IMG/VR virus record: IMGVR_UViG_2513020041_000001
Coordinates: 1-7,781 of that record
Origin: a virus
Taxonomy: Monodnaviria; Loebvirae; Hofneiviricota; Faserviricetes; Tubulavirales
Strand: one strand, 5' to 3'
DNA length: 7,781 nucleotides
The notes beneath the pieces were generated by a model, which ran no database searches, had not been told where the DNA came from, and saw only the letters and a program-made list of their open reading frames with translations. The number at the start of each line of letters is the position of its first letter. Position 1 is the first letter of the stretch. A program made the translations under genes and the position numbers. This document shows positions 1 through 7,781 of this stretch, one piece after another.

Positions 1-1269
1 ATGACTCCAACCAGTTCCGATCTGGTCAGAAATGCCGCTGAGGGCTCAGGCGGCGCAGCCGCCCTAGGTAGTATTGCGAAATGTTCTTCCCCCCCCCCTC
101 CGAAGGCAATGAGGGCCCAAAGATACCAAGCTCTTTCTCAGGCTCGGATCTGGTTAAAACCCTTGGCTGTCAAGGATCCCACCAAGCCTTACGGGTGGAA
201 ATTGCACCGCACGCAAGACTGCCGCTATAAGCGGATCGGCATCGGCGTCACCGTGCATAAAGACATCAAGCATCAGACCGCTTTTTACGGCGATGTAGCC
301 ACCTGTGGCTCCGTGTGGGCTTGTACCGTGTGCTCGGCAAAAATTCAGACTCGTCGACGTCCAGAGGTACAGCAGCTGGTCGATTGGGCTTACGAGAACG
401 ACTATCAGGTCACCATGATTACGTTCACGTTCCCGCATCTGGCATTTGATCGCCTGAAGGAACTGCTCGATGGCCAGAAACGCGCCTTTGAGATCCTCCG
501 CGGCGGTAGCCCATGGGTGAAGTTCAAGCAGCGTCACGGCCTTATCGGCTTTGTGCGCTCTCTGGAGGTCACTCACGGCGATAACGGCTGGCATCCTCAC
601 ACCCATGAGCTTTGGATCACCAAGGGGCTCACAGCCACGAATATGGCCACTTTCGAGAGCGGTATCCGCAAGCGGTGGCGGACTTCCTGCATCCAAGCTG
701 GTTTGCTCGATGAAACCTCGAAGGCGCAACTGTTCGCGTTCGATCTGCACTCGGTCGATTTTCAGTTTCAGGTGTCCACCTCTGACTACCTCGTCAAGAT
801 GGATAACGCGCGCAAATGGGGTGTCGATGCTGAGATGACGGCTCAAGCGTCAAAGGTTGGTGGTGATCGCGTCACGAAGACCATTCACCCCCATGAATTC
901 CTGATGCGTCGCGCACCTGGTGATGATGCCCGCTACCGCGAATACGTAACGGGCATGCATGGGAAAAGCCAGCTGTTCTGGTCTCAGCGCCTAAAAGACG
1001 CCTGCGGCGTAGAGCATGTGACTGACGAAGAGATTGCCAAGGAACAAACCGAAAAAGCGGATCTGCTAGCTCACCTGACCGACAGTCAATGGCGTGTCGT
1101 TCGTGGAAACGATGCCCTTGCTGAAGTGCTCGATGCTGCCGAGCTTGGTGGCTGGCCTGCTATCCGCTCCCTGCTGAAATCGCTTGGCTGCGAGATTCTC
1201 GAGACGGATTGTCATGATCCATTTTTCGAGGTCAATCGTGTTCTTTTCGCTCCAGACGAGCAGGTCTAG
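1..1269 (+). CDS. Rolling-circle replication initiator (HUH endonuclease, gII/RstA-like Rep), 422 aa
   Basis: Long ORF with the three HUH motifs in canonical order: motif 1 MITFTFP (nt ~415-435), motif 2 GWHPHTHELWI (nt ~589-621), motif 3 SDYLVKM with catalytic Tyr and Lys three residues on (nt ~784-801). It is the first gene of the unit, upstream of the ssb and coat genes as in filamentous phages. The N-terminal 36 aa are low-complexity (Ser/Gly/Ala/Pro) and include the C10 tract; the true start could be the internal Met at nt 109. Confidence 0.8.
   Translation: MTPTSSDLVRNAAEGSGGAAALGSIAKCSSPPPPKAMRAQRYQALSQARIWLKPLAVKDPTKPYGWKLHRTQDCRYKRIGIGVTVHKDIKHQTAFYGDVATCGSVWACTVCSAKIQTRRRPEVQQLVDWAYENDYQVTMITFTFPHLAFDRLKELLDGQKRAFEILRGGSPWVKFKQRHGLIGFVRSLEVTHGDNGWHPHTHELWITKGLTATNMATFESGIRKRWRTSCIQAGLLDETSKAQLFAFDLHSVDFQFQVSTSDYLVKMDNARKWGVDAEMTAQASKVGGDRVTKTIHPHEFLMRRAPGDDARYREYVTGMHGKSQLFWSQRLKDACGVEHVTDEEIAKEQTEKADLLAHLTDSQWRVVRGNDALAEVLDAAELGGWPAIRSLLKSLGCEILETDCHDPFFEVNRVLFAPDEQV
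1..1269. repeat. Direct repeat copy 1 (identical to 6513-7781): terminal redundancy of a 6512-bp unit
   Basis: Sequence 1-1269 matches 6513-7781 base for base on inspection, and the ORF track gives identical 422-aa translations and identical embedded ORFs for both copies. Confidence 0.95.
89..98 (+). repeat. C10 homopolymer tract in the 5' end of rep (encodes SSPPPP); second copy at 6601-6610
   Basis: Ten consecutive C residues counted at 89-98 and again at 6601-6610. Confidence 0.9.
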
Positions 1270-1426
1270 CAGCAGTTCTTTCGAGGACTTCGTCATATCG
1301 TTTGCTCCTTTCCAGCAGGTATTCCAATGCCTGCGTATGCGTGCAGTCCATCTCAACCTCAAGCATTTTGAGTTGAGTCCAGACTTCCTTTGAAACCGAG
1401 ATGTTTTTAAGCCGATCAGTGGCCAT
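1232..1426 (-). CDS. Ribbon-helix-helix (CopG/Arc-like) transcriptional regulator, 64 aa
   Basis: Minus-strand ORF MATDRLKNISVSKEVWTQLKMLEVEMDCTHTQALEYLLERSKRYDEVLERTAARPARLERKEHD. It has the RHH pattern of a short N-terminal beta-strand with alternating hydrophobics (RLKNISVS) followed by two helices (WTQLKMLEVEM, THTQALEYLLER), closely resembling CopG-type repressors. ATG is the rc of 1424-1426, with GGAG about 10 nt upstream on the minus strand. It is convergent with rep (38-bp 3' overlap) and divergent from the ssb gene. Confidence 0.55.
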   Translation of the reverse strand: MATDRLKNISVSKEVWTQLKMLEVEMDCTHTQALEYLLERSKRYDEVLERTAARPARLERKEHD

Positions 1427-1465
1427 GGGCCATTATCTCCATTTTTGTCCGATGAGTGGTGCGCA

Positions 1466-1571
1466 ACCCGACCAACGATCCGTAAAGGTCGGGTATTGAC
1501 CGGGTGTGTATTCGTGTTATCGTGTTTTCGTGTTGACGAACCATTCCCTTACACGATCCCGCGAAAACACG
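1466..1571. promoter_or_regulatory. Divergent regulatory region between the minus-strand RHH gene and ssb: hairpin, CGTGTT repeats, 10-bp inverted repeat
   Basis: 8-bp stem acccgacc (1466-1473) / ggtcgggt (1487-1494). Three CGTGTT direct repeats at 8-bp period (1513-1518, 1521-1526, 1529-1534). Perfect 10-bp inverted repeat cgtgttttcg (1521-1530) / cgaaaacacg (1562-1571) bracketing -35-like ttgacg (1533-1538), ending just before the ssb RBS aaagga (1575-1580). Confidence 0.4.
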
Positions 1572-1588
1572 CGAAAGGATACAACTCC

Positions 1589-1861
1589 ATGTCAGAAAAT
1601 ATCGTCGCAACCATTGAATTTACCGGCCTGAACAAGACCGGCACTTCCATGAAGTCCGGCACACCTAAGCCATGGTGGCGGCTTGGCGCGTACGTGAAAG
1701 TCCCCGGCCTGCTCCATCCGCAAGCTATCGAATTTTTCACCTCGGAAGTGACTCAGGTTCAGCCTGCAGGCAAGTACGAGGCTCCCTGCATCACTCGAAT
1801 TCAGGACGGAAAAATCACTGTTGAGCCTGATCTTTCTCAGCTCAAAGCGGTTCGCGCCTGA
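1589..1861 (+). CDS. ssDNA-binding protein (gV-like), 90 aa
   Basis: ATG at 1589 preceded by RBS aaagga (1575-1580). Small (90 aa) basic/aromatic-containing protein placed between rep and the major coat gene, the canonical gV position. The ORF-track extension back to 1445 lacks an RBS and overlaps the regulatory repeats. Confidence 0.6.
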   Translation: MSENIVATIEFTGLNKTGTSMKSGTPKPWWRLGAYVKVPGLLHPQAIEFFTSEVTQVQPAGKYEAPCITRIQDGKITVEPDLSQLKAVRA

Positions 1862-1965
1862 TGCCAGCGCTTGCTGATATGCCCGAGCTGGTATCAGCGA
1901 TCGTGCTTCTGTGGGCCACAGCTTGGTGCCTTAAACAAATACTTAATGCCATCAAAAAATTGTGA
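1861..1965 (+). CDS. Small hydrophobic protein, 34 aa (pVII/pIX-like minor coat candidate)
   Basis: ATG at 1861 overlaps the ssb stop (tgATG). Encodes MPALADMPELVSAIVLLWATAWCLKQILNAIKKL with a single hydrophobic helix, and ends 8 nt before the major coat start. Size and position match pVII/pIX of Ff-type phages. No own SD, so translational coupling would be required. Confidence 0.35.
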   Translation: MPALADMPELVSAIVLLWATAWCLKQILNAIKKL

Positions 1966-1972
1966 GGATCAC

Positions 1973-2230
1973 ATGCAAAAAGCTCTGTTTGTTCGCGCTG
2001 GAAATACTTGGTTCCGTCGCTCTGCAACTGTTGCCACTGGTGCGGCAATCATGATCGCTTCCGGTCTCGCTTCTGCTGCTGGTGAGACTCCTGAAGGCGG
2101 TGTCGACTCGGCGGCTGTCGTCGATCTGATCAAGGCTGCCGGTGTGACTGTCGGTGTTGTAGGTGTTGCTTGTATGGGTGTCTACCTGGCGCTGAAAGGC
2201 TTCCAGTGGGCTCGCTCCGCGATCAAGTAA
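1973..2230 (+). CDS. Major coat protein precursor (pVIII-like), 85 aa
   Basis: ATG at 1973 with RBS gagga (1964-1968). N-terminal signal-like segment ending ...ASGLASA, then a mature part with acidic N-terminus (ETPEGGVDSAAVVD), hydrophobic core (AAGVTVGVVGVACMGVYLAL) and basic C-terminus (KGFQWARSAIK), which is the defining pVIII architecture. Followed immediately by a strong intrinsic terminator. Confidence 0.8.
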   Translation: MQKALFVRAGNTWFRRSATVATGAAIMIASGLASAAGETPEGGVDSAAVVDLIKAAGVTVGVVGVACMGVYLALKGFQWARSAIK

Positions 2231-2241
2231 AGGGCGTACTC

Positions 2242-2276
2242 GCTCACTAGGGGGCTCAGTGAGCTCCCTTTTTTTT
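2242..2276 (+). terminator. Rho-independent terminator after the major coat gene
   Basis: Stem gctcact (2242-2248) / agtgagc (2258-2264) with a 9-nt GC-rich loop, followed by tccc and a T8 run (2269-2276). Confidence 0.7.
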
Positions 2277-2310
2277 GAGAATTTCCTATGGAAACTACGC
2301 AGGCGATCTT

Positions 2311-3459
2311 ATGGAACATAGAGCCATCCTTGGTTTACTTGTTGGCGGTTTGTGGTGCGTTCTGGATTCTTTTTCGCAGCTAGCTTCTGCGGCAGTTGAA
2401 ATTAACGTTGTACCTTTAGCAAATGGTACCTATGGCAAAGTTGTTGGCATTACAAATATTTCGCCATCAGGAAGCGCTACCGCCGTTGTTCAAGCTAAAG
2501 ATAAATTCGGTAATCTGGTTAATCGCTCTAGGACGCTTACCGCTAATCCGGCCAAATATGGCGCTTGGGCGCGTACTGCTATGCGCAGGATTCCCGCCGT
2601 TCAAATTGCCTTAGCTGCTGCTGCTGTTGCTGCTGGTTATTTGGTTACTCAAACTACTGATGAGTTTGGACAGGTAGGTTACGATATTTATAAACCCGGC
2701 TCTTCTTTGCCCGGGCTTGATGTTGAATGTCCTACTAACTCTGTATCTGTGCCTAATCCATCTGGTGTTGGCAACGTTCAGGCTTTTATCCCTACACCTT
2801 GCTATAACACTCGTTATTCAAACTACAGAGAATATTGGACTACTGAGCCATCTGCCGAACTGCAAGTGTGGGCTGGCTCAAATAGCCCTAATGTAGTCAC
2901 TCGTTGGCAATCTACATCTGTATCAATTCCACCCACACAGAAGCCTACGTATATTTATAAGCGCGGCATTAGCGCATCAAATCCTGAGAATAAACCTACT
3001 GTTCAGCGTGTTCCTGCTACAGATAGTGATTTAACTACTTGGGGTTTTCAGTCCCCTGACTCTGTTCAAGAAGCACCTGGGAAATTTCCAGATGTTTGGA
3101 ATCCCCTCCCGTGGGAAGAAACCGCTTCTGATGATGAGGTTGTTAACCCTCCGACTCAGCCCGGAGAAAGCACAGAAGATCCTGATTACGACCCCTGCGA
3201 AGGAGATTGTGCTGATTCTTCCGACCTCGATCATTCGGTTTTAGACCTCTCTTCATATCTCAAATGGGGGGAGGGCTGGATGCCTAGGCAGTGTCCCGCA
3301 CCGGTGCTTATTTACCAGTTCAACAACACGCCGGATGGGCAAGGTTGGTTCGATTTCTCTTACATATGCAGCGTTATGACTGATTTTGTATCCCCGTTCA
3401 TGCGAATTGCTGGCTTGTTCTTTTTCGTCCGCATTGTTGTAGGAGGTATGCGTGAATAG
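2311..3459 (+). CDS. Minor coat / adsorption protein (pIII-like), about 382 aa
   Basis: First gene after the coat terminator. N-terminal signal-like hydrophobic segment (MEHRAILGLLVGGLWCVLDSFSQLASA), an acidic Pro/Asp/Glu-rich linker (EETASDDEVVNPPTQPGESTEDPDYDP), Cys pairs and a C-terminal hydrophobic anchor (FMRIAGLFFFVRIVVGG). The ORF-track start at 2275 is a TTG inside the terminator T-run; ATG 2311 is preferred, but the start is uncertain. Confidence 0.6.
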   Translation: MEHRAILGLLVGGLWCVLDSFSQLASAAVEINVVPLANGTYGKVVGITNISPSGSATAVVQAKDKFGNLVNRSRTLTANPAKYGAWARTAMRRIPAVQIALAAAAVAAGYLVTQTTDEFGQVGYDIYKPGSSLPGLDVECPTNSVSVPNPSGVGNVQAFIPTPCYNTRYSNYREYWTTEPSAELQVWAGSNSPNVVTRWQSTSVSIPPTQKPTYIYKRGISASNPENKPTVQRVPATDSDLTTWGFQSPDSVQEAPGKFPDVWNPLPWEETASDDEVVNPPTQPGESTEDPDYDPCEGDCADSSDLDHSVLDLSSYLKWGEGWMPRQCPAPVLIYQFNNTPDGQGWFDFSYICSVMTDFVSPFMRIAGLFFFVRIVVGGMRE

Positions 3460-3739
3460 CTTGCTTAAGATTTTTGGCGTTGAATCAATCCGACACCTGG
3501 TCATCAAGACAATTTCCAGTCTCGGTATTGGGGTGATGAGCTATCAGGGACTTAATATTTTGCTTGGTATGATCACTGATCAAGTCATGCAAAACTTTAA
3601 CTCTTTGCCTGTGTCTGTTCTTTCCATCATGGGACTTGGCGGTCTCGATCACTTTATCAATATTGTTCTTTCAGCTTATTCGGCCCGCTTTGCCATGGCA
3701 TCCATTAAGAAATTTAGAATGATGGGCGCTGCTACATGA
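3452..3739 (+). CDS. Minor coat / membrane protein (pVI-like), 95 aa
   Basis: GTG start at 3452 with strong RBS aggagg (3441-3446), overlapping the pIII stop. The product is highly hydrophobic with multiple predicted TM segments; size and position (between pIII and pI) match gVI. Confidence 0.55.
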   Translation: MNSLLKIFGVESIRHLVIKTISSLGIGVMSYQGLNILLGMITDQVMQNFNSLPVSVLSIMGLGGLDHFINIVLSAYSARFAMASIKKFRMMGAAT

Positions 3740-4638
3740 TTCATTTAATTACCGGCGCACCTGGAACGGGAAAATCTCTGCTTGCTGTAGAGATTATTTT
3801 GGATAATTCATTATCTGAAAATCCGCGGCCTATTTTTTCCAACATCAACGGTTTGGACTTTGAGAAGCTGCGCTGCTTTCCTCTTGATAATCCTGAGGAG
3901 TGGCATACCTATCCAGTTGGTTCGCTGCTGGTAATTGATGAATGCCAACGCTATTTCCCACCTCGACCGAACGGGAGCAAGGTTCCGCAGAACATTGCAG
4001 AATTTGAAACCCATAGACACCATGGCCTTGACATCATTCTGTTAACTCAACATCCAACGTTTATTGATGCCAATATCAGAAAGCTTGTTGATCGTCATCA
4101 GCATGGGTTTCGTCCTTTTGGTAAAAAACGTCGGACTCTTCTGGAGTGGACAGGTTGCAATGACAATCCTGAGCCTGCGAAGAATGAATCTAATTCCTTG
4201 CAGAAGCGTAAGCCTTTTGATCCAAAGCTTTTTCAATATTACAAAAGTTCATCTCAGCATACTGATAAGGACCGTACGCCTTGGGCTAAAGTTCTTTTTC
4301 CTTTTGTTATGTTGGTTTTGGTTGTAGTTGCTTTCGGATTTGCATTTTATCGCTTAAGTCCGTCAAAGCCTGAATCGGTTAATTCTAAATTTGATAATTC
4401 AGTTAAAACGGTTGATAAACAGGCAGTCATTCCTACTGCTTCTTATGTAGGTTTTTTCCGTTCTGACAATGGCTTGCCTGCAACAGTGCTTGTTAAGGAC
4501 GGTTCAAATGGTTTCTACCGCGTTGATTATGATTCTTGGAATGTTGCCGGACCTCAGGTGAGCTTTTTTAAGGCAGATTCAACAACGCCCGTGCTTCGGG
4601 TTTCTTCATTAATTTTGGCAAAACTTATACAGGAGTAG
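3736..4638 (+). CDS. Zonula occludens toxin-like assembly ATPase (pI/Zot family), 300 aa
   Basis: ATG 3736 overlaps the upstream stop (ATGA). N-terminal Walker A GAPGTGKS, Walker B-like LLVIDECQ, an internal TM helix (VLFPFVMLVLVVVAFGFAFY) and a C-terminal periplasmic domain, which is the Zot/pI architecture. Confidence 0.8.
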   Translation: MIHLITGAPGTGKSLLAVEIILDNSLSENPRPIFSNINGLDFEKLRCFPLDNPEEWHTYPVGSLLVIDECQRYFPPRPNGSKVPQNIAEFETHRHHGLDIILLTQHPTFIDANIRKLVDRHQHGFRPFGKKRRTLLEWTGCNDNPEPAKNESNSLQKRKPFDPKLFQYYKSSSQHTDKDRTPWAKVLFPFVMLVLVVVAFGFAFYRLSPSKPESVNSKFDNSVKTVDKQAVIPTASYVGFFRSDNGLPATVLVKDGSNGFYRVDYDSWNVAGPQVSFFKADSTTPVLRVSSLILAKLIQE

Positions 4639-4681
4639 ACGGGGGAGGCGGGCGCTTGCGCACGACGCGCACGTCTACTCC
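4632..4681. promoter_or_regulatory. GC-rich nested inverted repeat spanning the Zot stop codon, upstream of the secretin gene
   Basis: Perfect 10-bp inverted repeat ggagtagacg (4632-4641) / cgtctactcc (4672-4681) enclosing an inner hairpin tgcgc (4657-4661) / gcgca (4667-4671). No T-run follows on either strand, so it is not a canonical intrinsic terminator. Confidence 0.4.
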
Positions 4682-4696
4682 AACCTGCTGACATTT

Positions 4697-5932
4697 ATGA
4701 AAAAACTGATCGCATTCACGTTTTTGATACTGTCTGGATTAGCTCACGCTGAAAACCTGACGCTTTCCTATGATCAAGTGCCCGTCACTCAGCTCCTAGT
4801 CGAAACCTACCGTAATCGACTTGAGAAATCATATGTCATTGACCCCAGCGTTGTTTCCAACAACAGTCTTGTTTCTATTAATGTTCGCGATCTTCCAATT
4901 GAGAGATTGGAATCTACTGTTGATAGCATCCTTAAAACTGCTGGTATCAATAAGGTAGTTGGTTCCGATGGGCTCATTCTTTTCAGCGCTCGCTCATATG
5001 ATTATGCAAACTCTCTCCCTCCCGTTCCAGCTTCTGTTGCTTCTCCTGGTATGGCATCGCTAGGCGCTGATCTTCCACCGGATATCCCTCTTCAAAATGG
5101 GAGTATTCCGGATAACTTCACCATTTTTCTTGCTCATAATCGGCCAACTTCTTTTTTACAGCCAATTGCCAATAAATTGCTTGGTACCAATTACGAACCT
5201 TCCGACCAGGTGTTTTTGTCGGGGGATGCCAAGCAGGTTGAAAAAGTGCGGTTCATCCTGGAGCAGCTCGACACCGCTCCGAATGAAATCATGGCTCAGG
5301 CTGTTGTTCTCGAGTTCTCAACCCAGCGTGTGAAAGGGTCCAGTTTTGAGATGGCAATCTCTGCTTTGTCCGGCCACCTTAAAATCGGTGTTGATTCCTT
5401 GCTCCCTGCCGGTGGGAATTTCATCAAGTGGTCTTCCACGGATCTGACTGCCGTCCTTTCTGCCGTATCCGGTGATTCTCGTTTTCATGTTGTTTCGACT
5501 CCAACGCTGCGCGTTGTTAGTGGTGGTACTGGTCGCCTGTTGGTTGGTCAGGAAGTGCCTACCCTGTCGTCTTCGTCTCTCGATAATTCAGGCAATGCGG
5601 TGCAGTCGATTGAGTACCGATCCGCAGGTGTGATCATGGAGCTGAAGCCCACCATTCTCCGTAATCGTATTGACCTGGAGCTGAATCAACAGATTTCCGA
5701 TTTCGCTCAAAACAATCTTTCTGGCATCGATTCTCCGACGCTGACTAAGCGTGAGTTGACCACCAAAATTTCGGCCCAGCCGGGGGAGCTGATTGTGCTT
5801 GGCGGGCTCGATCAGACGAAAAAAACAGATCAGAGCCGAGGCCTGTCGTTCCTTCCGTCCTTCATGGGCGGTAGCTCTTCAACTGACGCAGATACCCAGA
5901 TCCTGCTGGTTTTGCAGGTAACGAAAATATAG
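4697..5932 (+). CDS. Secretin (pIV/GspD-like outer-membrane export channel), 411 aa
   Basis: N-terminal signal peptide MKKLIAFTFLILSGLAHA. The C-terminal half carries secretin-domain signatures (VVSTPTLRVVSGGTGRLLVGQEVP, EYRSAGVIMELKPTI, GELIVLGGLDQTKKTDQSRGLSFLPSFMG, TQILLVLQVTKI) matching the conserved pattern of phage pIV and T2SS GspD. Confidence 0.8.
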   Translation: MKKLIAFTFLILSGLAHAENLTLSYDQVPVTQLLVETYRNRLEKSYVIDPSVVSNNSLVSINVRDLPIERLESTVDSILKTAGINKVVGSDGLILFSARSYDYANSLPPVPASVASPGMASLGADLPPDIPLQNGSIPDNFTIFLAHNRPTSFLQPIANKLLGTNYEPSDQVFLSGDAKQVEKVRFILEQLDTAPNEIMAQAVVLEFSTQRVKGSSFEMAISALSGHLKIGVDSLLPAGGNFIKWSSTDLTAVLSAVSGDSRFHVVSTPTLRVVSGGTGRLLVGQEVPTLSSSSLDNSGNAVQSIEYRSAGVIMELKPTILRNRIDLELNQQISDFAQNNLSGIDSPTLTKRELTTKISAQPGELIVLGGLDQTKKTDQSRGLSFLPSFMGGSSSTDADTQILLVLQVTKI

Positions 5933-5933
5933 C

Positions 5934-5961
5934 TTTACACGGTAATTACCGGGTCTATACT
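5934..5961 (+). promoter_or_regulatory. Candidate sigma70 promoter with an embedded 12-bp perfect palindrome (operator)
   Basis: -35-like tttaca (5934-5939) and -10-like tatact (5956-5961) with a 16-bp spacer; the perfect palindrome cggtaattaccg (5940-5951) lies in the spacer. It is followed by RBS aaggagg (5974-5980) and ATG 5989. Confidence 0.45.
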
Positions 5962-5988
5962 GGAGCCATATCAAAGGAGGCCGCTACC

Positions 5989-6159
5989 ATGGCAAATCAA
6001 TCCGCATCATCCGAAAAAATGCTTAACGTGAAGGTTCCCGAGGATCTCAAGCAGTCTTTTACGCTGGCTGTTGGGGCTCAAGATCAGACCGTTTCCCATG
6101 TCATCCGCGACTTCATGCGCAAATATGTCGCCCAACATGGTCAGGGGAAGCTGCTGTGA
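5989..6159 (+). CDS. Ribbon-helix-helix DNA-binding protein, 56 aa (absent from the ORF track)
   Basis: ATG 5989 with near-consensus SD aaggagg 8 nt upstream, stop TGA 6157-6159. Translation MANQSASSEKMLNVKVPEDLKQSFTLAVGAQDQTVSHVIRDFMRKYVAQHGQGKLL shows a beta-strand (LNVKV), helix A (PEDLKQSFTLAVGA) and helix B (QTVSHVIRDFMRKYV), the RHH fold pattern. Confidence 0.6.
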   Translation: MANQSASSEKMLNVKVPEDLKQSFTLAVGAQDQTVSHVIRDFMRKYVAQHGQGKLL

Positions 6160-6323
6160 ATATACTTCCGGTCACCCCTGCTTCTGCCGTGGCAAGCGCT
6201 GTCACGTGCCCTTCGTTTTCCCTTGACCCGTCCGTGGTCGTCCTCGCCCTTTTTCTGCCCTTTGTCCTTGTAGGGGCTTACTACCTTTTCCGGCTCGCCA
6301 AGGCTGATCTTCGTGGATTGTAA
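6156..6323 (+). CDS. Small single-pass membrane protein, 55 aa (absent from the ORF track)
   Basis: GTG 6156 overlaps the RHH stop (GTGA), with SD-like gggaag (6145-6150) 5 nt upstream. Translation MNILPVTPASAVASAVTCPSFSLDPSVVVLALFLPFVLVGAYYLFRLAKADLRGL has one hydrophobic helix followed by a basic C-terminus. Stop TAA 6321-6323 is followed directly by a hairpin. Confidence 0.45.
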   Translation: MNILPVTPASAVASAVTCPSFSLDPSVVVLALFLPFVLVGAYYLFRLAKADLRGL

Positions 6324-6325
6324 AG

Positions 6326-6374
6326 CCGGTTCTAGACGCCTGAATGGCTTCATCTTTCAGGTGGCTAGAACCGG
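6326..6374. promoter_or_regulatory. Hairpin: 10-bp perfect inverted repeat with 29-nt loop at the start of the intergenic region
   Basis: ccggttctag (6326-6335) / ctagaaccgg (6365-6374). It begins 3 nt after the stop of the small membrane-protein ORF. Confidence 0.5.
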
Positions 6375-6382
6375 AATCGATC

Positions 6383-6423
6383 TTTCTGTAGACCAAATTT
6401 CGTAGACGTACTTTTTCGTAGAC
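6383..6423 (+). repeat. Three iteron-like direct repeats, TTTC(T)GTAGAC
   Basis: tttctgtagac (6383-6393), tttcgtagac (6398-6407), tttcgtagac (6414-6423), spaced about 14-16 bp apart in the same orientation, upstream of rep. Confidence 0.55.
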
Positions 6424-6447
6424 AAAAAAAAGGCCCCATGAGGGGCC
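6424..6447 (-). terminator. GC hairpin flanked by an A8 run (T8 on the minus strand): terminator-like on the minus strand, or an origin/packaging hairpin
   Basis: A8 (6424-6431), stem ggcccc (6432-6437) / ggggcc (6442-6447), loop atga. Read on the minus strand this is a 6-bp GC stem followed by T8, the canonical intrinsic-terminator shape. On the + strand no T-run follows. Confidence 0.4.
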
Positions 6448-6512
6448 CTTGACACTCGTGAAGCCCCTTTCCCGGCAAGGCGCGGAGCTTCACAACGCAG
6501 GGATATTCTAGC

Positions 6513-7781
6513 ATGACTCCAACCAGTTCCGATCTGGTCAGAAATGCCGCTGAGGGCTCAGGCGGCGCAGCCGCCCTAGGTAGTATTGCGAAATGTTCTT
6601 CCCCCCCCCCTCCGAAGGCAATGAGGGCCCAAAGATACCAAGCTCTTTCTCAGGCTCGGATCTGGTTAAAACCCTTGGCTGTCAAGGATCCCACCAAGCC
6701 TTACGGGTGGAAATTGCACCGCACGCAAGACTGCCGCTATAAGCGGATCGGCATCGGCGTCACCGTGCATAAAGACATCAAGCATCAGACCGCTTTTTAC
6801 GGCGATGTAGCCACCTGTGGCTCCGTGTGGGCTTGTACCGTGTGCTCGGCAAAAATTCAGACTCGTCGACGTCCAGAGGTACAGCAGCTGGTCGATTGGG
6901 CTTACGAGAACGACTATCAGGTCACCATGATTACGTTCACGTTCCCGCATCTGGCATTTGATCGCCTGAAGGAACTGCTCGATGGCCAGAAACGCGCCTT
7001 TGAGATCCTCCGCGGCGGTAGCCCATGGGTGAAGTTCAAGCAGCGTCACGGCCTTATCGGCTTTGTGCGCTCTCTGGAGGTCACTCACGGCGATAACGGC
7101 TGGCATCCTCACACCCATGAGCTTTGGATCACCAAGGGGCTCACAGCCACGAATATGGCCACTTTCGAGAGCGGTATCCGCAAGCGGTGGCGGACTTCCT
7201 GCATCCAAGCTGGTTTGCTCGATGAAACCTCGAAGGCGCAACTGTTCGCGTTCGATCTGCACTCGGTCGATTTTCAGTTTCAGGTGTCCACCTCTGACTA
7301 CCTCGTCAAGATGGATAACGCGCGCAAATGGGGTGTCGATGCTGAGATGACGGCTCAAGCGTCAAAGGTTGGTGGTGATCGCGTCACGAAGACCATTCAC
7401 CCCCATGAATTCCTGATGCGTCGCGCACCTGGTGATGATGCCCGCTACCGCGAATACGTAACGGGCATGCATGGGAAAAGCCAGCTGTTCTGGTCTCAGC
7501 GCCTAAAAGACGCCTGCGGCGTAGAGCATGTGACTGACGAAGAGATTGCCAAGGAACAAACCGAAAAAGCGGATCTGCTAGCTCACCTGACCGACAGTCA
7601 ATGGCGTGTCGTTCGTGGAAACGATGCCCTTGCTGAAGTGCTCGATGCTGCCGAGCTTGGTGGCTGGCCTGCTATCCGCTCCCTGCTGAAATCGCTTGGC
7701 TGCGAGATTCTCGAGACGGATTGTCATGATCCATTTTTCGAGGTCAATCGTGTTCTTTTCGCTCCAGACGAGCAGGTCTAG
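6513..7781 (+). CDS. Rolling-circle replication initiator (second, identical copy of 1-1269)
   Basis: Identical 422-aa translation to the ORF at 1-1269, with the same HUH motifs. ATG 6513 has no obvious SD upstream (gggatattctagc), which adds to the doubt about the true start (alternative Met at 6621). Confidence 0.8.
   Translation: MTPTSSDLVRNAAEGSGGAAALGSIAKCSSPPPPKAMRAQRYQALSQARIWLKPLAVKDPTKPYGWKLHRTQDCRYKRIGIGVTVHKDIKHQTAFYGDVATCGSVWACTVCSAKIQTRRRPEVQQLVDWAYENDYQVTMITFTFPHLAFDRLKELLDGQKRAFEILRGGSPWVKFKQRHGLIGFVRSLEVTHGDNGWHPHTHELWITKGLTATNMATFESGIRKRWRTSCIQAGLLDETSKAQLFAFDLHSVDFQFQVSTSDYLVKMDNARKWGVDAEMTAQASKVGGDRVTKTIHPHEFLMRRAPGDDARYREYVTGMHGKSQLFWSQRLKDACGVEHVTDEEIAKEQTEKADLLAHLTDSQWRVVRGNDALAEVLDAAELGGWPAIRSLLKSLGCEILETDCHDPFFEVNRVLFAPDEQV
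6513..7781. repeat. Direct repeat copy 2 (identical to 1-1269)
   Basis: Exact duplication of window positions 1-1269, extending to the window end. Confidence 0.95.

Follow-up and report, generated by a model that had tools for sequence, protein, structure and literature searches.

In the filamentous phages Ff (M13, f1, fd) and IKe, the replication genes are followed by ssb, a small hydrophobic open reading frame (ORF), the pVIII gene with its terminator, the genes for pIII, pVI, pI, and pIV, and an intergenic region. Minimal rolling-circle replication (RCR) plasmids of Pseudomonas, such as p47L, pP33-3, and pYQ39, encode a Rep_1-type initiator and have no virion or assembly genes. PMBT54 (OR047306; Hille et al, 2023) is a phage for which a filamentous virion and its extrusion have been demonstrated, and which its authors judged to be a non-integrating episome (PMC10534721). 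Exchange of replication genes among inoviruses and plasmids has already been documented (PMC6813254). The DNA considered here, a stretch of 7781 bases held as IMG/VR record IMGVR_UViG_2513020041_000001 (at its full length referred to as the window), very probably represents one complete, circular filamentous phage genome of 6512 bp and of Pseudomonas type, a chimera of two modules that was written 1269 bases past its start.

The order of genes known from Ff and IKe is found again in the window, and its secretin matches the protein family of M13 protein IV over the full length. In contrast to these phages, the Rep protein belongs to an unrelated family, one gene lies on the minus strand, two regulators of the ribbon-helix-helix (RHH) type are encoded, and a single small hydrophobic ORF stands beside the coat gene. 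The genome divides into a replication/regulation module (∼5932–6512, continued at 1–1860), comprising the genes for a 56-residue RHH protein (RHH56), a hydrophobic ORF of 55 codons (hyd55), the intergenic region, the Rep_1-type Rep, a 64-residue RHH protein (RHH64), and ssb, and a virion/assembly module (∼1861–5932), comprising a hydrophobic ORF of 34 codons (hyd34) and the genes for the coat, the pIII-like and pVI-like proteins, the Zot/pI ATPase, and the secretin. PMBT54 has the genes of the first module in the same order and resembles the window closely there: amino acid identities are 70% (Rep), 73% (RHH64), 90% (ssb), and 60% (RHH56, through its omega-like RHH protein), that is, 60–90% overall, and they reach 73–97% in the metagenomic circle L010. 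In both genomes, the window phage and PMBT54, the RHH64 counterpart overlaps the end of rep on the minus strand, a TCGTGTT array is present, an A-run hairpin and a hairpin with conserved loop precede rep, a secretin is encoded, and the genome is a small circle. Outside bases 1854–5931, nucleotide identity to L010 is 80% and to PMBT54 72%. Within the other module, no similarity of the coat, pIII, pVI, and Zot proteins to their counterparts in PMBT54 or L010 could be detected, and the PMBT54 secretin likewise has no BLAST-detectable similarity to that of the window. PMBT54 is also larger (7320 versus 6512 bp), and lacks a hyd55 homolog and the TTTCGTAGAC repeats.

Bases 1854–5931 find their relatives elsewhere. 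They are 76% identical at the nucleotide level to L019/L020, and the encoded proteins are 88% (hyd34), 68% (coat), 84% (pIII-like, the homologs standing at the same position), 96–97% (pVI-like), 86% (Zot), and 82% (secretin) identical. Prophages of two P. lundensis genomes carry a block that is 39–76% identical at the amino acid level (hyd34 66%; pIII-like 67%, again at the same position). The prophages of the P. lundensis DSM 6252 type (L022, L023, and L025) and L019/L020 thus share with the window the hyd34-to-secretin block in the same order, and they also share a conserved hairpin between the Zot and secretin genes. They differ in being chromosomal and in having, instead of the Rep_1 protein and both RHH genes, a Rep of the Ff gpII type (Phage_CRI/G2P_X_C) and a divergently oriented repressor of the Xre helix-turn-helix type. 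The junctions between the two modules fall at the overlap of the ssb stop and the hyd34 start (∼1854–1860) and at the secretin stop (∼5932). Judged by these similarities, the genome is a chimera of two phage modules and a clear natural hybrid of two lineages.

A sister of this genome, L026, is a closed circle of 6465 bp with the same layout and ∼81% nucleotide identity overall. Its Rep and ssb are nearly the same as those of the window (98.6% and 98.9% identity), and its pIII-like, Zot, and coat proteins have diverged further (75%, 78%, and 64%). As L026 shares the layout, the chimera represents a lineage and not an artefact, and as the structural block of the window is nearer to L019/L020 than to L026, repeated exchange is implied. 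The first 750 bases of rep are 97–99% identical to L026, versus 56–86% for most of the genome, suggesting that a part of rep was exchanged or converted very recently. Megablast against GenBank phages returned a single match, PMBT54 over ssb at 80% identity, and no GenBank phage has a Zot more than 46% or a secretin more than 39% identical to that of the window. Megablast against PLSDB gave no match to the unit, and scans with the Rep protein of assembled genome and viral contig collections gave no relatives; a scan of metagenome contigs for an exact 45-mer was likewise without result. The phage is a new member, at the species or genus level, of a known kind, the secretin-encoding inoviruses exemplified by Ff, IKe, and PMBT54. 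Current understanding is not overturned by it, module exchange in inoviruses being well documented (PMC6813254); what it offers is an unusually clean case in which integrating and episomal inoviruses have traded an entire replication module, the junctions coinciding with gene boundaries, and a closed genome plus a defined sister for the poorly sampled secretin-encoding filamentous phages of Pseudomonas, of which PMBT54 is the one characterized member.

When the window was compared with itself, bases 1–1269 and 6513–7781 matched with 0 mismatches, and 6512 was the only offset to do so (adjacent offsets gave ∼75% mismatches). The first-pass annotation of this DNA had recognized both the repeat and the unit of 6512 bp, and had taken rep to be present twice. 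The repeated stretch is exactly the whole rep ORF of 422 codons, from the ATG through the stop codon. Assemblers do not yield repeat edges precisely at gene boundaries; the coincidence of the edges with those of the ORF indicates that the window was cut there, and the true overlap in the source may therefore exceed 1269 bases. The exact Rep protein is present on nine contigs, six of which comprise the 6512-bp core and, at the ends, an overlap of 55, 30, or 22 bases. An overlap of this kind, of k-mer size, is what a closed cycle leaves behind in de Bruijn graph assembly. The six circular assemblies, which are independent of one another (JGI 3300006096 and 3300003534; Logan SRR100575, SRR1518447, SRR096344, and SRR20754647) open at unit positions 3699, 2506, 5722, 5248, 4593, and 3915, deviate from the window by 0–1 base, and hold a single rep each. 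The second copy (6513–7781, plus strand, identical to 1–1269) is thus the wrap-around of a circular genome and no separate gene. The overlap itself may stem from a long-read assembler, from a concatemer made by rolling-circle amplification, or from the way in which the window was constructed.

Two topologies had been proposed for the repeat, a circle linearized past its origin and a tandem prophage, and only the former is borne out by the six circles. The latter would mean that the window samples an array of at least two head-to-tail units integrated in a bacterial chromosome. CTXphi and some Pf-like phages form such arrays, and relatives of the structural module (L019, L022, and L023) are integrated in Pseudomonas chromosomes. 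In L024 (1–14920), which has a gpII-type Rep and an Xre repressor, a unit of 7104 bp is repeated with zero mismatches from ∼1000 to 7500, with unique sequence at both ends; this genuine tandem indicates that tandem prophages occur in the parental lineage of the structural module. Assemblers can, moreover, collapse tandem arrays into seeming circles, so that by the circular contigs alone integration in some cells is conceivable; this counts against the circular topology preferred here. However, an integrated phage, whether single or in tandem, would branch the assembly graph at the att site and break contigs there, whereas the six circles break at six different positions, with no att junction in common. 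Contigs on which the Rep, pIII, secretin, or hyd55 protein occurs in exactly this form are all free of flanking host DNA, and no such contig is longer than 6567 bp. Profile searches of the window proteins (Pfam, PHROG, and NCBIfam) revealed no integrase or transposase domain, and the genome contains no dif-like XerCD site (core of the E. coli/Pseudomonas type, up to 3 mismatches allowed); the flanks and the att- or dif-like junction for which the first-pass annotation had advised to look thus did not turn up. In addition, the relatives prone to integration use a gpII-type Rep together with Xre, a module which the window phage has lost, and PMBT54, the closest characterized owner of its replication module, is held to be episomal by its authors. 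The tandem array is therefore considered very unlikely; the evidence favors a circular episome or replicative form, in which the second rep is the wrap-around.

An artefact of assembly, through the joining of two phages from one sample or the wrong resolution of a repeat, is hardly conceivable as the source of the chimeric layout or of the duplication. In its favor, both parental-type lineages are found in similar metagenomes, and the source contig of the window was not recovered from the collections searched. Against it, the same 6512-bp circle was obtained, with 0–1 mismatch, from at least six assemblies by different pipelines, and the sister L026 has the same module junctions. These junctions lie at gene boundaries, and the duplication is simply the circular overlap.

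Several points weigh against the reading of the window as one circular, two-module filamentous phage of Pseudomonas. It is drawn from sequence alone. The pIII assignment is positional, backed by the termini of the protein and by co-located homologs, with no family match. All RHH profile matches of RHH56 and RHH64 stay below the curated cut-offs, and the nick motif of pC194 and phiX174, CTTGATA, is absent from the intergenic regions. The GC content of 49.5% is below that of typical Pseudomonas chromosomes (that of PMBT54 is 48.4%), and the contig from which the window was taken did not turn up in any collection searched. The host is most probably Pseudomonas. PMBT54 infects P. carnis and P. lactis (PMC10534721). 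Among 185,579 species-representative genomes, a relative of the pIII-like protein was found in P. lundensis DSM 6252 only; a gene flanking L019 encodes a protein identical to Pseudomonas WP_254485470.1; and homologs of Rep reside on small Pseudomonas plasmids. Together, these four observations point to the genus.

The complete inovirus gene set and order noted in the first-pass annotation was upheld by profile searches, which support Rep, ssb, the coat, the pVI-like protein, Zot, and the secretin, and thereby all three of the assignments (Rep, Zot, and secretin) that had been singled out for such a check. NCBIfam contributed only sub-threshold matches, to secretin and antitoxin-like models. 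With a Zot ATPase containing a transmembrane segment, a pVIII-like coat, and a small circle carrying replication, structural, and assembly modules, the genome has the features by which filamentous phages are recognized. An RCR plasmid was considered instead of a phage and was ruled out by the full set of virion and assembly genes.

The genes of the virion/assembly module all lie on the plus strand. The first, hyd34 (1861–1965), encodes 34 residues with one hydrophobic segment, and its start overlaps the ssb stop (TGATG); by its position and size, it is a candidate for a minor coat protein of the pVII/pIX type. The major coat gene (1973–2230) specifies an 85-residue, pVIII-like precursor laid out as signal peptide, acidic N-terminus, hydrophobic core, and basic C-terminus; it matches PF05356 (Phage_Coat_B; 24.8 bits versus a cut-off of 23.5) and phrog_2374 (1.6e-15). 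Behind it, where a terminator had been predicted earlier, an intrinsic one was found on the plus strand (2249–2277), formed by a 9-bp stem at 2249–2269 with 6 GC pairs and a subsequent T8 run. The pIII-like adsorption protein (2311–3459; 382 residues) was assigned by its position, its signal-like N-terminal segment, and a hydrophobic C-terminal anchor at residues 359–378; it has no match in Pfam, NCBIfam, or the GenBank phages, the latter searched by tblastn. It is followed by the gene for a pVI-like minor coat protein of the DUF2523 family (3452–3739; 95 residues), which matches PF10734 with 62.6 bits and phrog_1242, annotated as minor virion protein. In the Zot/pI assembly ATPase (3736–4638; 300 residues; PF05707, 109 bits; phrog_197), Walker A is located at residue 7, the sequence LLVIDE, similar to Walker B, at residue 64, and a transmembrane segment at ∼180–210.

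The module ends with the gene for a pIV-type secretin (4697–5932; 411 residues), which has a signal peptide and matches PF00263 with 79.8 bits and phrog_1012 (“protein IV of M13”) over residues 1–411 of 411 with 320 bits. It scores far under the curated cut-offs of the models for host GspD, PilQ, and other secretins. Reliance of the phage on its own rather than on a host secretin appears to be a reasonable assumption. Secretin carriage is variable within the Rep_1 replication lineage: in L015 (P. amygdali GCA_046365415.1, a contig of 6312 bp), whose Rep is 53% identical, the Zot gene is followed directly by a small ORF and then rep, without a secretin gene. The spacer between the Zot and secretin genes contains a GC-rich, imperfect hairpin with 24-nt arms (4632–4681), for which a minimum free energy of −20 kcal/mol was calculated with DNA parameters (z = −4.3 versus shuffles). 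L026, L019, and L020 have this hairpin almost unchanged, and the P. lundensis prophages L022 and L024 keep it with paired changes, while the genes around it are only ∼76% identical. Because it travels with the assembly module, this hairpin is a candidate for the packaging signal, or for another cis element of the morphogenesis module.

The replication protein is encoded by rep (1–1269, plus strand; 422 residues). Profile and motifs identify it as an HUH initiator of the Rep_1 family (pC194/pUB110 type), for which catalysis is predicted. It matches PF01446 over residues 107–206 (36.3 bits versus a cut-off of 33.2) and phrog_11698 (469 bits), and all but one of 120 listed Rep homologs carry PF01446 as well. 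In an alignment of 20 homologs with 44–77% identity, H198-P-H200-T-H202-E203, Y263-x-x-K266, and the cysteines C74, C102, C108, and C111 are invariant. No match to Phage_CRI or G2P_X_C (PF05144 and PF05155) was obtained at E ≤ 0.1. The earlier description as an HUH Rep therefore stands, with the correction that it is of the plasmid-type Rep_1 family and not an Ff gpII. Its nearest plasmid relatives, 43–48% identical, occur on cryptic RCR plasmids of Pseudomonas of 2.3–3.1 kb; p47L, pP33-3, and pYQ39 share with the window the PF01446 Rep with its HUH, YxxK, and cysteine cluster. A sequence search of the PDB with the Rep profile gave no homolog of solved structure. Rep proteins at least 90% identical to that of the window occur on contigs of about 7.25–7.4 kb, where they are probably combined with yet other structural modules.

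Upstream of rep, the intergenic region (6324–6512) contains three hairpins, which are kept by relatives with differing stem sequences. Covariation of stems was judged qualitatively from individual folds, as a MAFFT alignment of the regions upstream of rep put the arms of the second hairpin out of register. Hairpin A (6326–6374; 19-nt arms and an 11-nt loop) is retained with paired substitutions in the L010 stem, and at the corresponding position the other relatives form a shorter hairpin. Three iteron-like direct repeats, TTTC(T)GTAGAC, spaced by 15–16 nt, follow at 6383–6423; the window phage shares them with L010 alone, and PMBT54, L016–L018, and L012 lack them. Directly downstream of them, an A8 run and a GC hairpin (GGCCCC/GGGGCC; 6424–6450) read as an intrinsic terminator on the minus strand, and this element is retained in all relatives of the Rep_1 lineage, again with varying stem sequences. 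The third, hairpin C (6458–6493), exposes the loop GGCAAGGC at 6474–6481, which is unique in the genome and whose CAAGG core is invariant among relatives while the stems vary. The plasmids p47L, pP33-3, and pYQ39, as well as L015, likewise have an A-run and a hairpin with a related loop (GCTTGGCGG or GCCAACG) upstream of rep. As minimal Rep_1 replicons share little besides rep and the origin, hairpin C is the best candidate for the double-strand origin and the nick site of Rep. The classical CTTGATA motif was considered as the origin and rejected: the window, unlike Rep_1 plasmids, does not have it in noncoding DNA, and its one copy, at 3883 inside zot, is at chance level. The nick sequence of this Rep clade must thus differ. 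A search of the window against Rfam at E ≤ 1 gave no matches.

The replication module further contains ssb (1589–1861, plus strand), the gene for a gpV-like single-stranded DNA-binding protein of 90 residues, which matches PF17878 (28.8 bits versus a cut-off of 27) and phrog_2866 and is 88–90% identical to ssb of the PMBT54 type. Between rep and ssb lies the gene for RHH64, a putative repressor resembling MatP_C (17.4 bits versus a cut-off of 24). Located on the minus strand (1232–1426), it is convergent with rep, with whose 3′ end it shares 38 nt. It was predicted by gene callers in all assemblies, and its counterpart in PMBT54, ORF2, has a MatP_C domain. In five relatives it is 72–97% identical, and substitutions are distributed over codon positions 1:2:3 as 108:63:255, a bias which indicates that RHH64 is translated and a real gene. 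All genes had been placed on one strand in the first-pass annotation, a view which this conserved gene contradicts; two others, RHH56 (5989–6159) and hyd55 (6156–6323), had been overlooked.

The divergent control region between RHH64 and ssb (1496–1571) contains a promoter-like TTGACC-16-TATCGT (1496–1523), overlaid by TCGTGTT repeats with 8-bp spacing at 1512, 1520, and 1528, with inverted copies at 1551–1571. The motif occurs 5 times in the window, versus 0.96 expected. All relatives with RHH64 have conserved the array; it is missing in L012/L013, which lack RHH64 and keep the other RHH gene. This co-occurrence makes RHH64 the likely binder of the array, and RHH64 is likely to repress ssb and the structural operon, and probably its own divergent promoter, too.

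RHH56 (plus strand) is CopG/omega-like and may regulate rep as well as its own promoter. Its matches to RHH_9 (19.5 versus a cut-off of 23.4), RHH_1 (15.1 versus 20.5), and RHH_5 are sub-threshold, that to phrog_28287 has an E-value of 2e-8, and a PDB sequence search gave no match. Size, pattern, and homolog annotation of both RHH56 and RHH64 agree with an RHH fold. In relatives of the Rep_1 lineage, RHH56 is 49–73% identical, and ORF13 of PMBT54 is annotated as omega-like. A promoter-like TTTACA-16-TATACT (5934–5961, plus strand; 10/12 matches to the consensus) precedes the gene, with the palindrome CGGTAATTACCG in the spacer, and in front of their RHH gene, PMBT54, L016, L017, and L018 have conserved the two hexamers as well as the pattern of the spacer. 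As no plus-strand terminator is present between RHH56/hyd55 and rep, an autoregulated RHH–rep operon is the simplest reading, similar to that of CopG and RepB, which control the copy number of plasmid pMV158. The arrangement recalls that system and also the omega repressor of pSM19035: directly upstream of an RCR rep gene stands a small RHH gene whose own promoter bears a palindrome, and short direct-repeat arrays are the likely operators. The window differs from both in that no significant sequence match exists and in that there are two RHH genes, one of them antisense to and convergent with rep.

The start codon (GTG) of hyd55 (plus strand) overlaps the RHH56 stop (GTGA), by which the two are predicted to be translationally coupled. 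The ORF is hydrophobic with a transmembrane segment and was found only in the window phage and L026 (53 residues there, frame-preserving and with the transmembrane segment conserved); it is absent from L010 and PMBT54. JGI gene callers called a minus-strand ORF of 70 residues in this region instead. The coding status of hyd55 is nonetheless probable, and its product may serve in superinfection exclusion or be a second small protein of the virion.

How such a phage would work can be proposed from its homology with the Ff phages and with RCR plasmids. Rep would nick the plus strand at the intergenic origin, most probably in the loop of the hairpin at 6458–6493, and thereby drive rolling-circle replication of the episome. 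Progeny plus strands would be coated by ssb. The coat protein, together with pIII, pVI, the small hydrophobic protein, and Zot, would then extrude virions through the phage-encoded outer-membrane secretin, without lysis and without a host secretin. RHH64, made from a leftward transcript, would bind the TCGTGTT array over the ssb/structural promoter, and RHH56 would autoregulate its conserved promoter, which likely also feeds rep, as in the case of CopG–RepB or omega. The two small RHH proteins would thus probably set the level of chronic infection. More tentatively, the chimera may record a switch of lifestyle, in which a temperate, integrating Pseudomonas inovirus with gpII-type Rep and Xre exchanged its entire replication and immunity cassette for a plasmid-derived Rep_1 cassette with two RHH genes and became the obligately episomal, plasmid-like chronic phage represented by the window and L026. 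The convergent RHH64 transcript, which would end at the conserved minus-strand terminator just in front of rep, might in that case serve as an antisense brake on this gene. This scenario is possible, if on balance doubtful, and we know of no such brake in filamentous phages. With the two genomes, it becomes testable which cis elements follow which module (the origin with Rep, the candidate packaging hairpin with the assembly genes), how two RHH proteins set chronic virus production, and whether a module swap alters lifestyle.

The six circles and the partial contig L008 stem from several projects, yet their sole difference from the window is at position 6099, which is T in the window and in L003 and G elsewhere, corresponding to His or Gln at codon 37 of RHH56 (His37 with T). 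Such clonality across data sets suggests either one widespread strain or a laboratory or reagent contaminant. In the latter case, the phage of a contaminating Pseudomonas, rather than an environmental population, would have been sampled in many data sets. Identity across unrelated samples, here of at least six runs or projects except at 6099, is unusual for an environmental phage with single-stranded DNA, and Pseudomonas is a common contaminant of water and reagents. On the other hand, a literature search on the run accessions yielded nothing on the samples, some of the accessions are adjacent and may share projects, and the diverged relatives L026 and L010 occur in other samples, as would be expected of a natural lineage. 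Contamination thus appears rather improbable; it concerns provenance only and would leave the nature of the element unchanged. Either way, the near-identical genome in many unrelated data sets marks a possible recurrent contaminant worth recognizing.

Two minor observations were made on related contigs. L007 (SRR096346) has two gaps relative to the unit, and its 34-residue ORF and coat gene were called as one fused ORF of 122 residues (2053–2421), which is probably due to a sequencing or assembly indel rather than a variant. In L022/L023, two consecutive tyrosine-recombinase genes and an ORF of 704 residues (12627–17513) lie directly downstream of the P. lundensis prophage; they may belong to a separate mobile element of the recombinase-trio type or constitute the integration module of the prophage.

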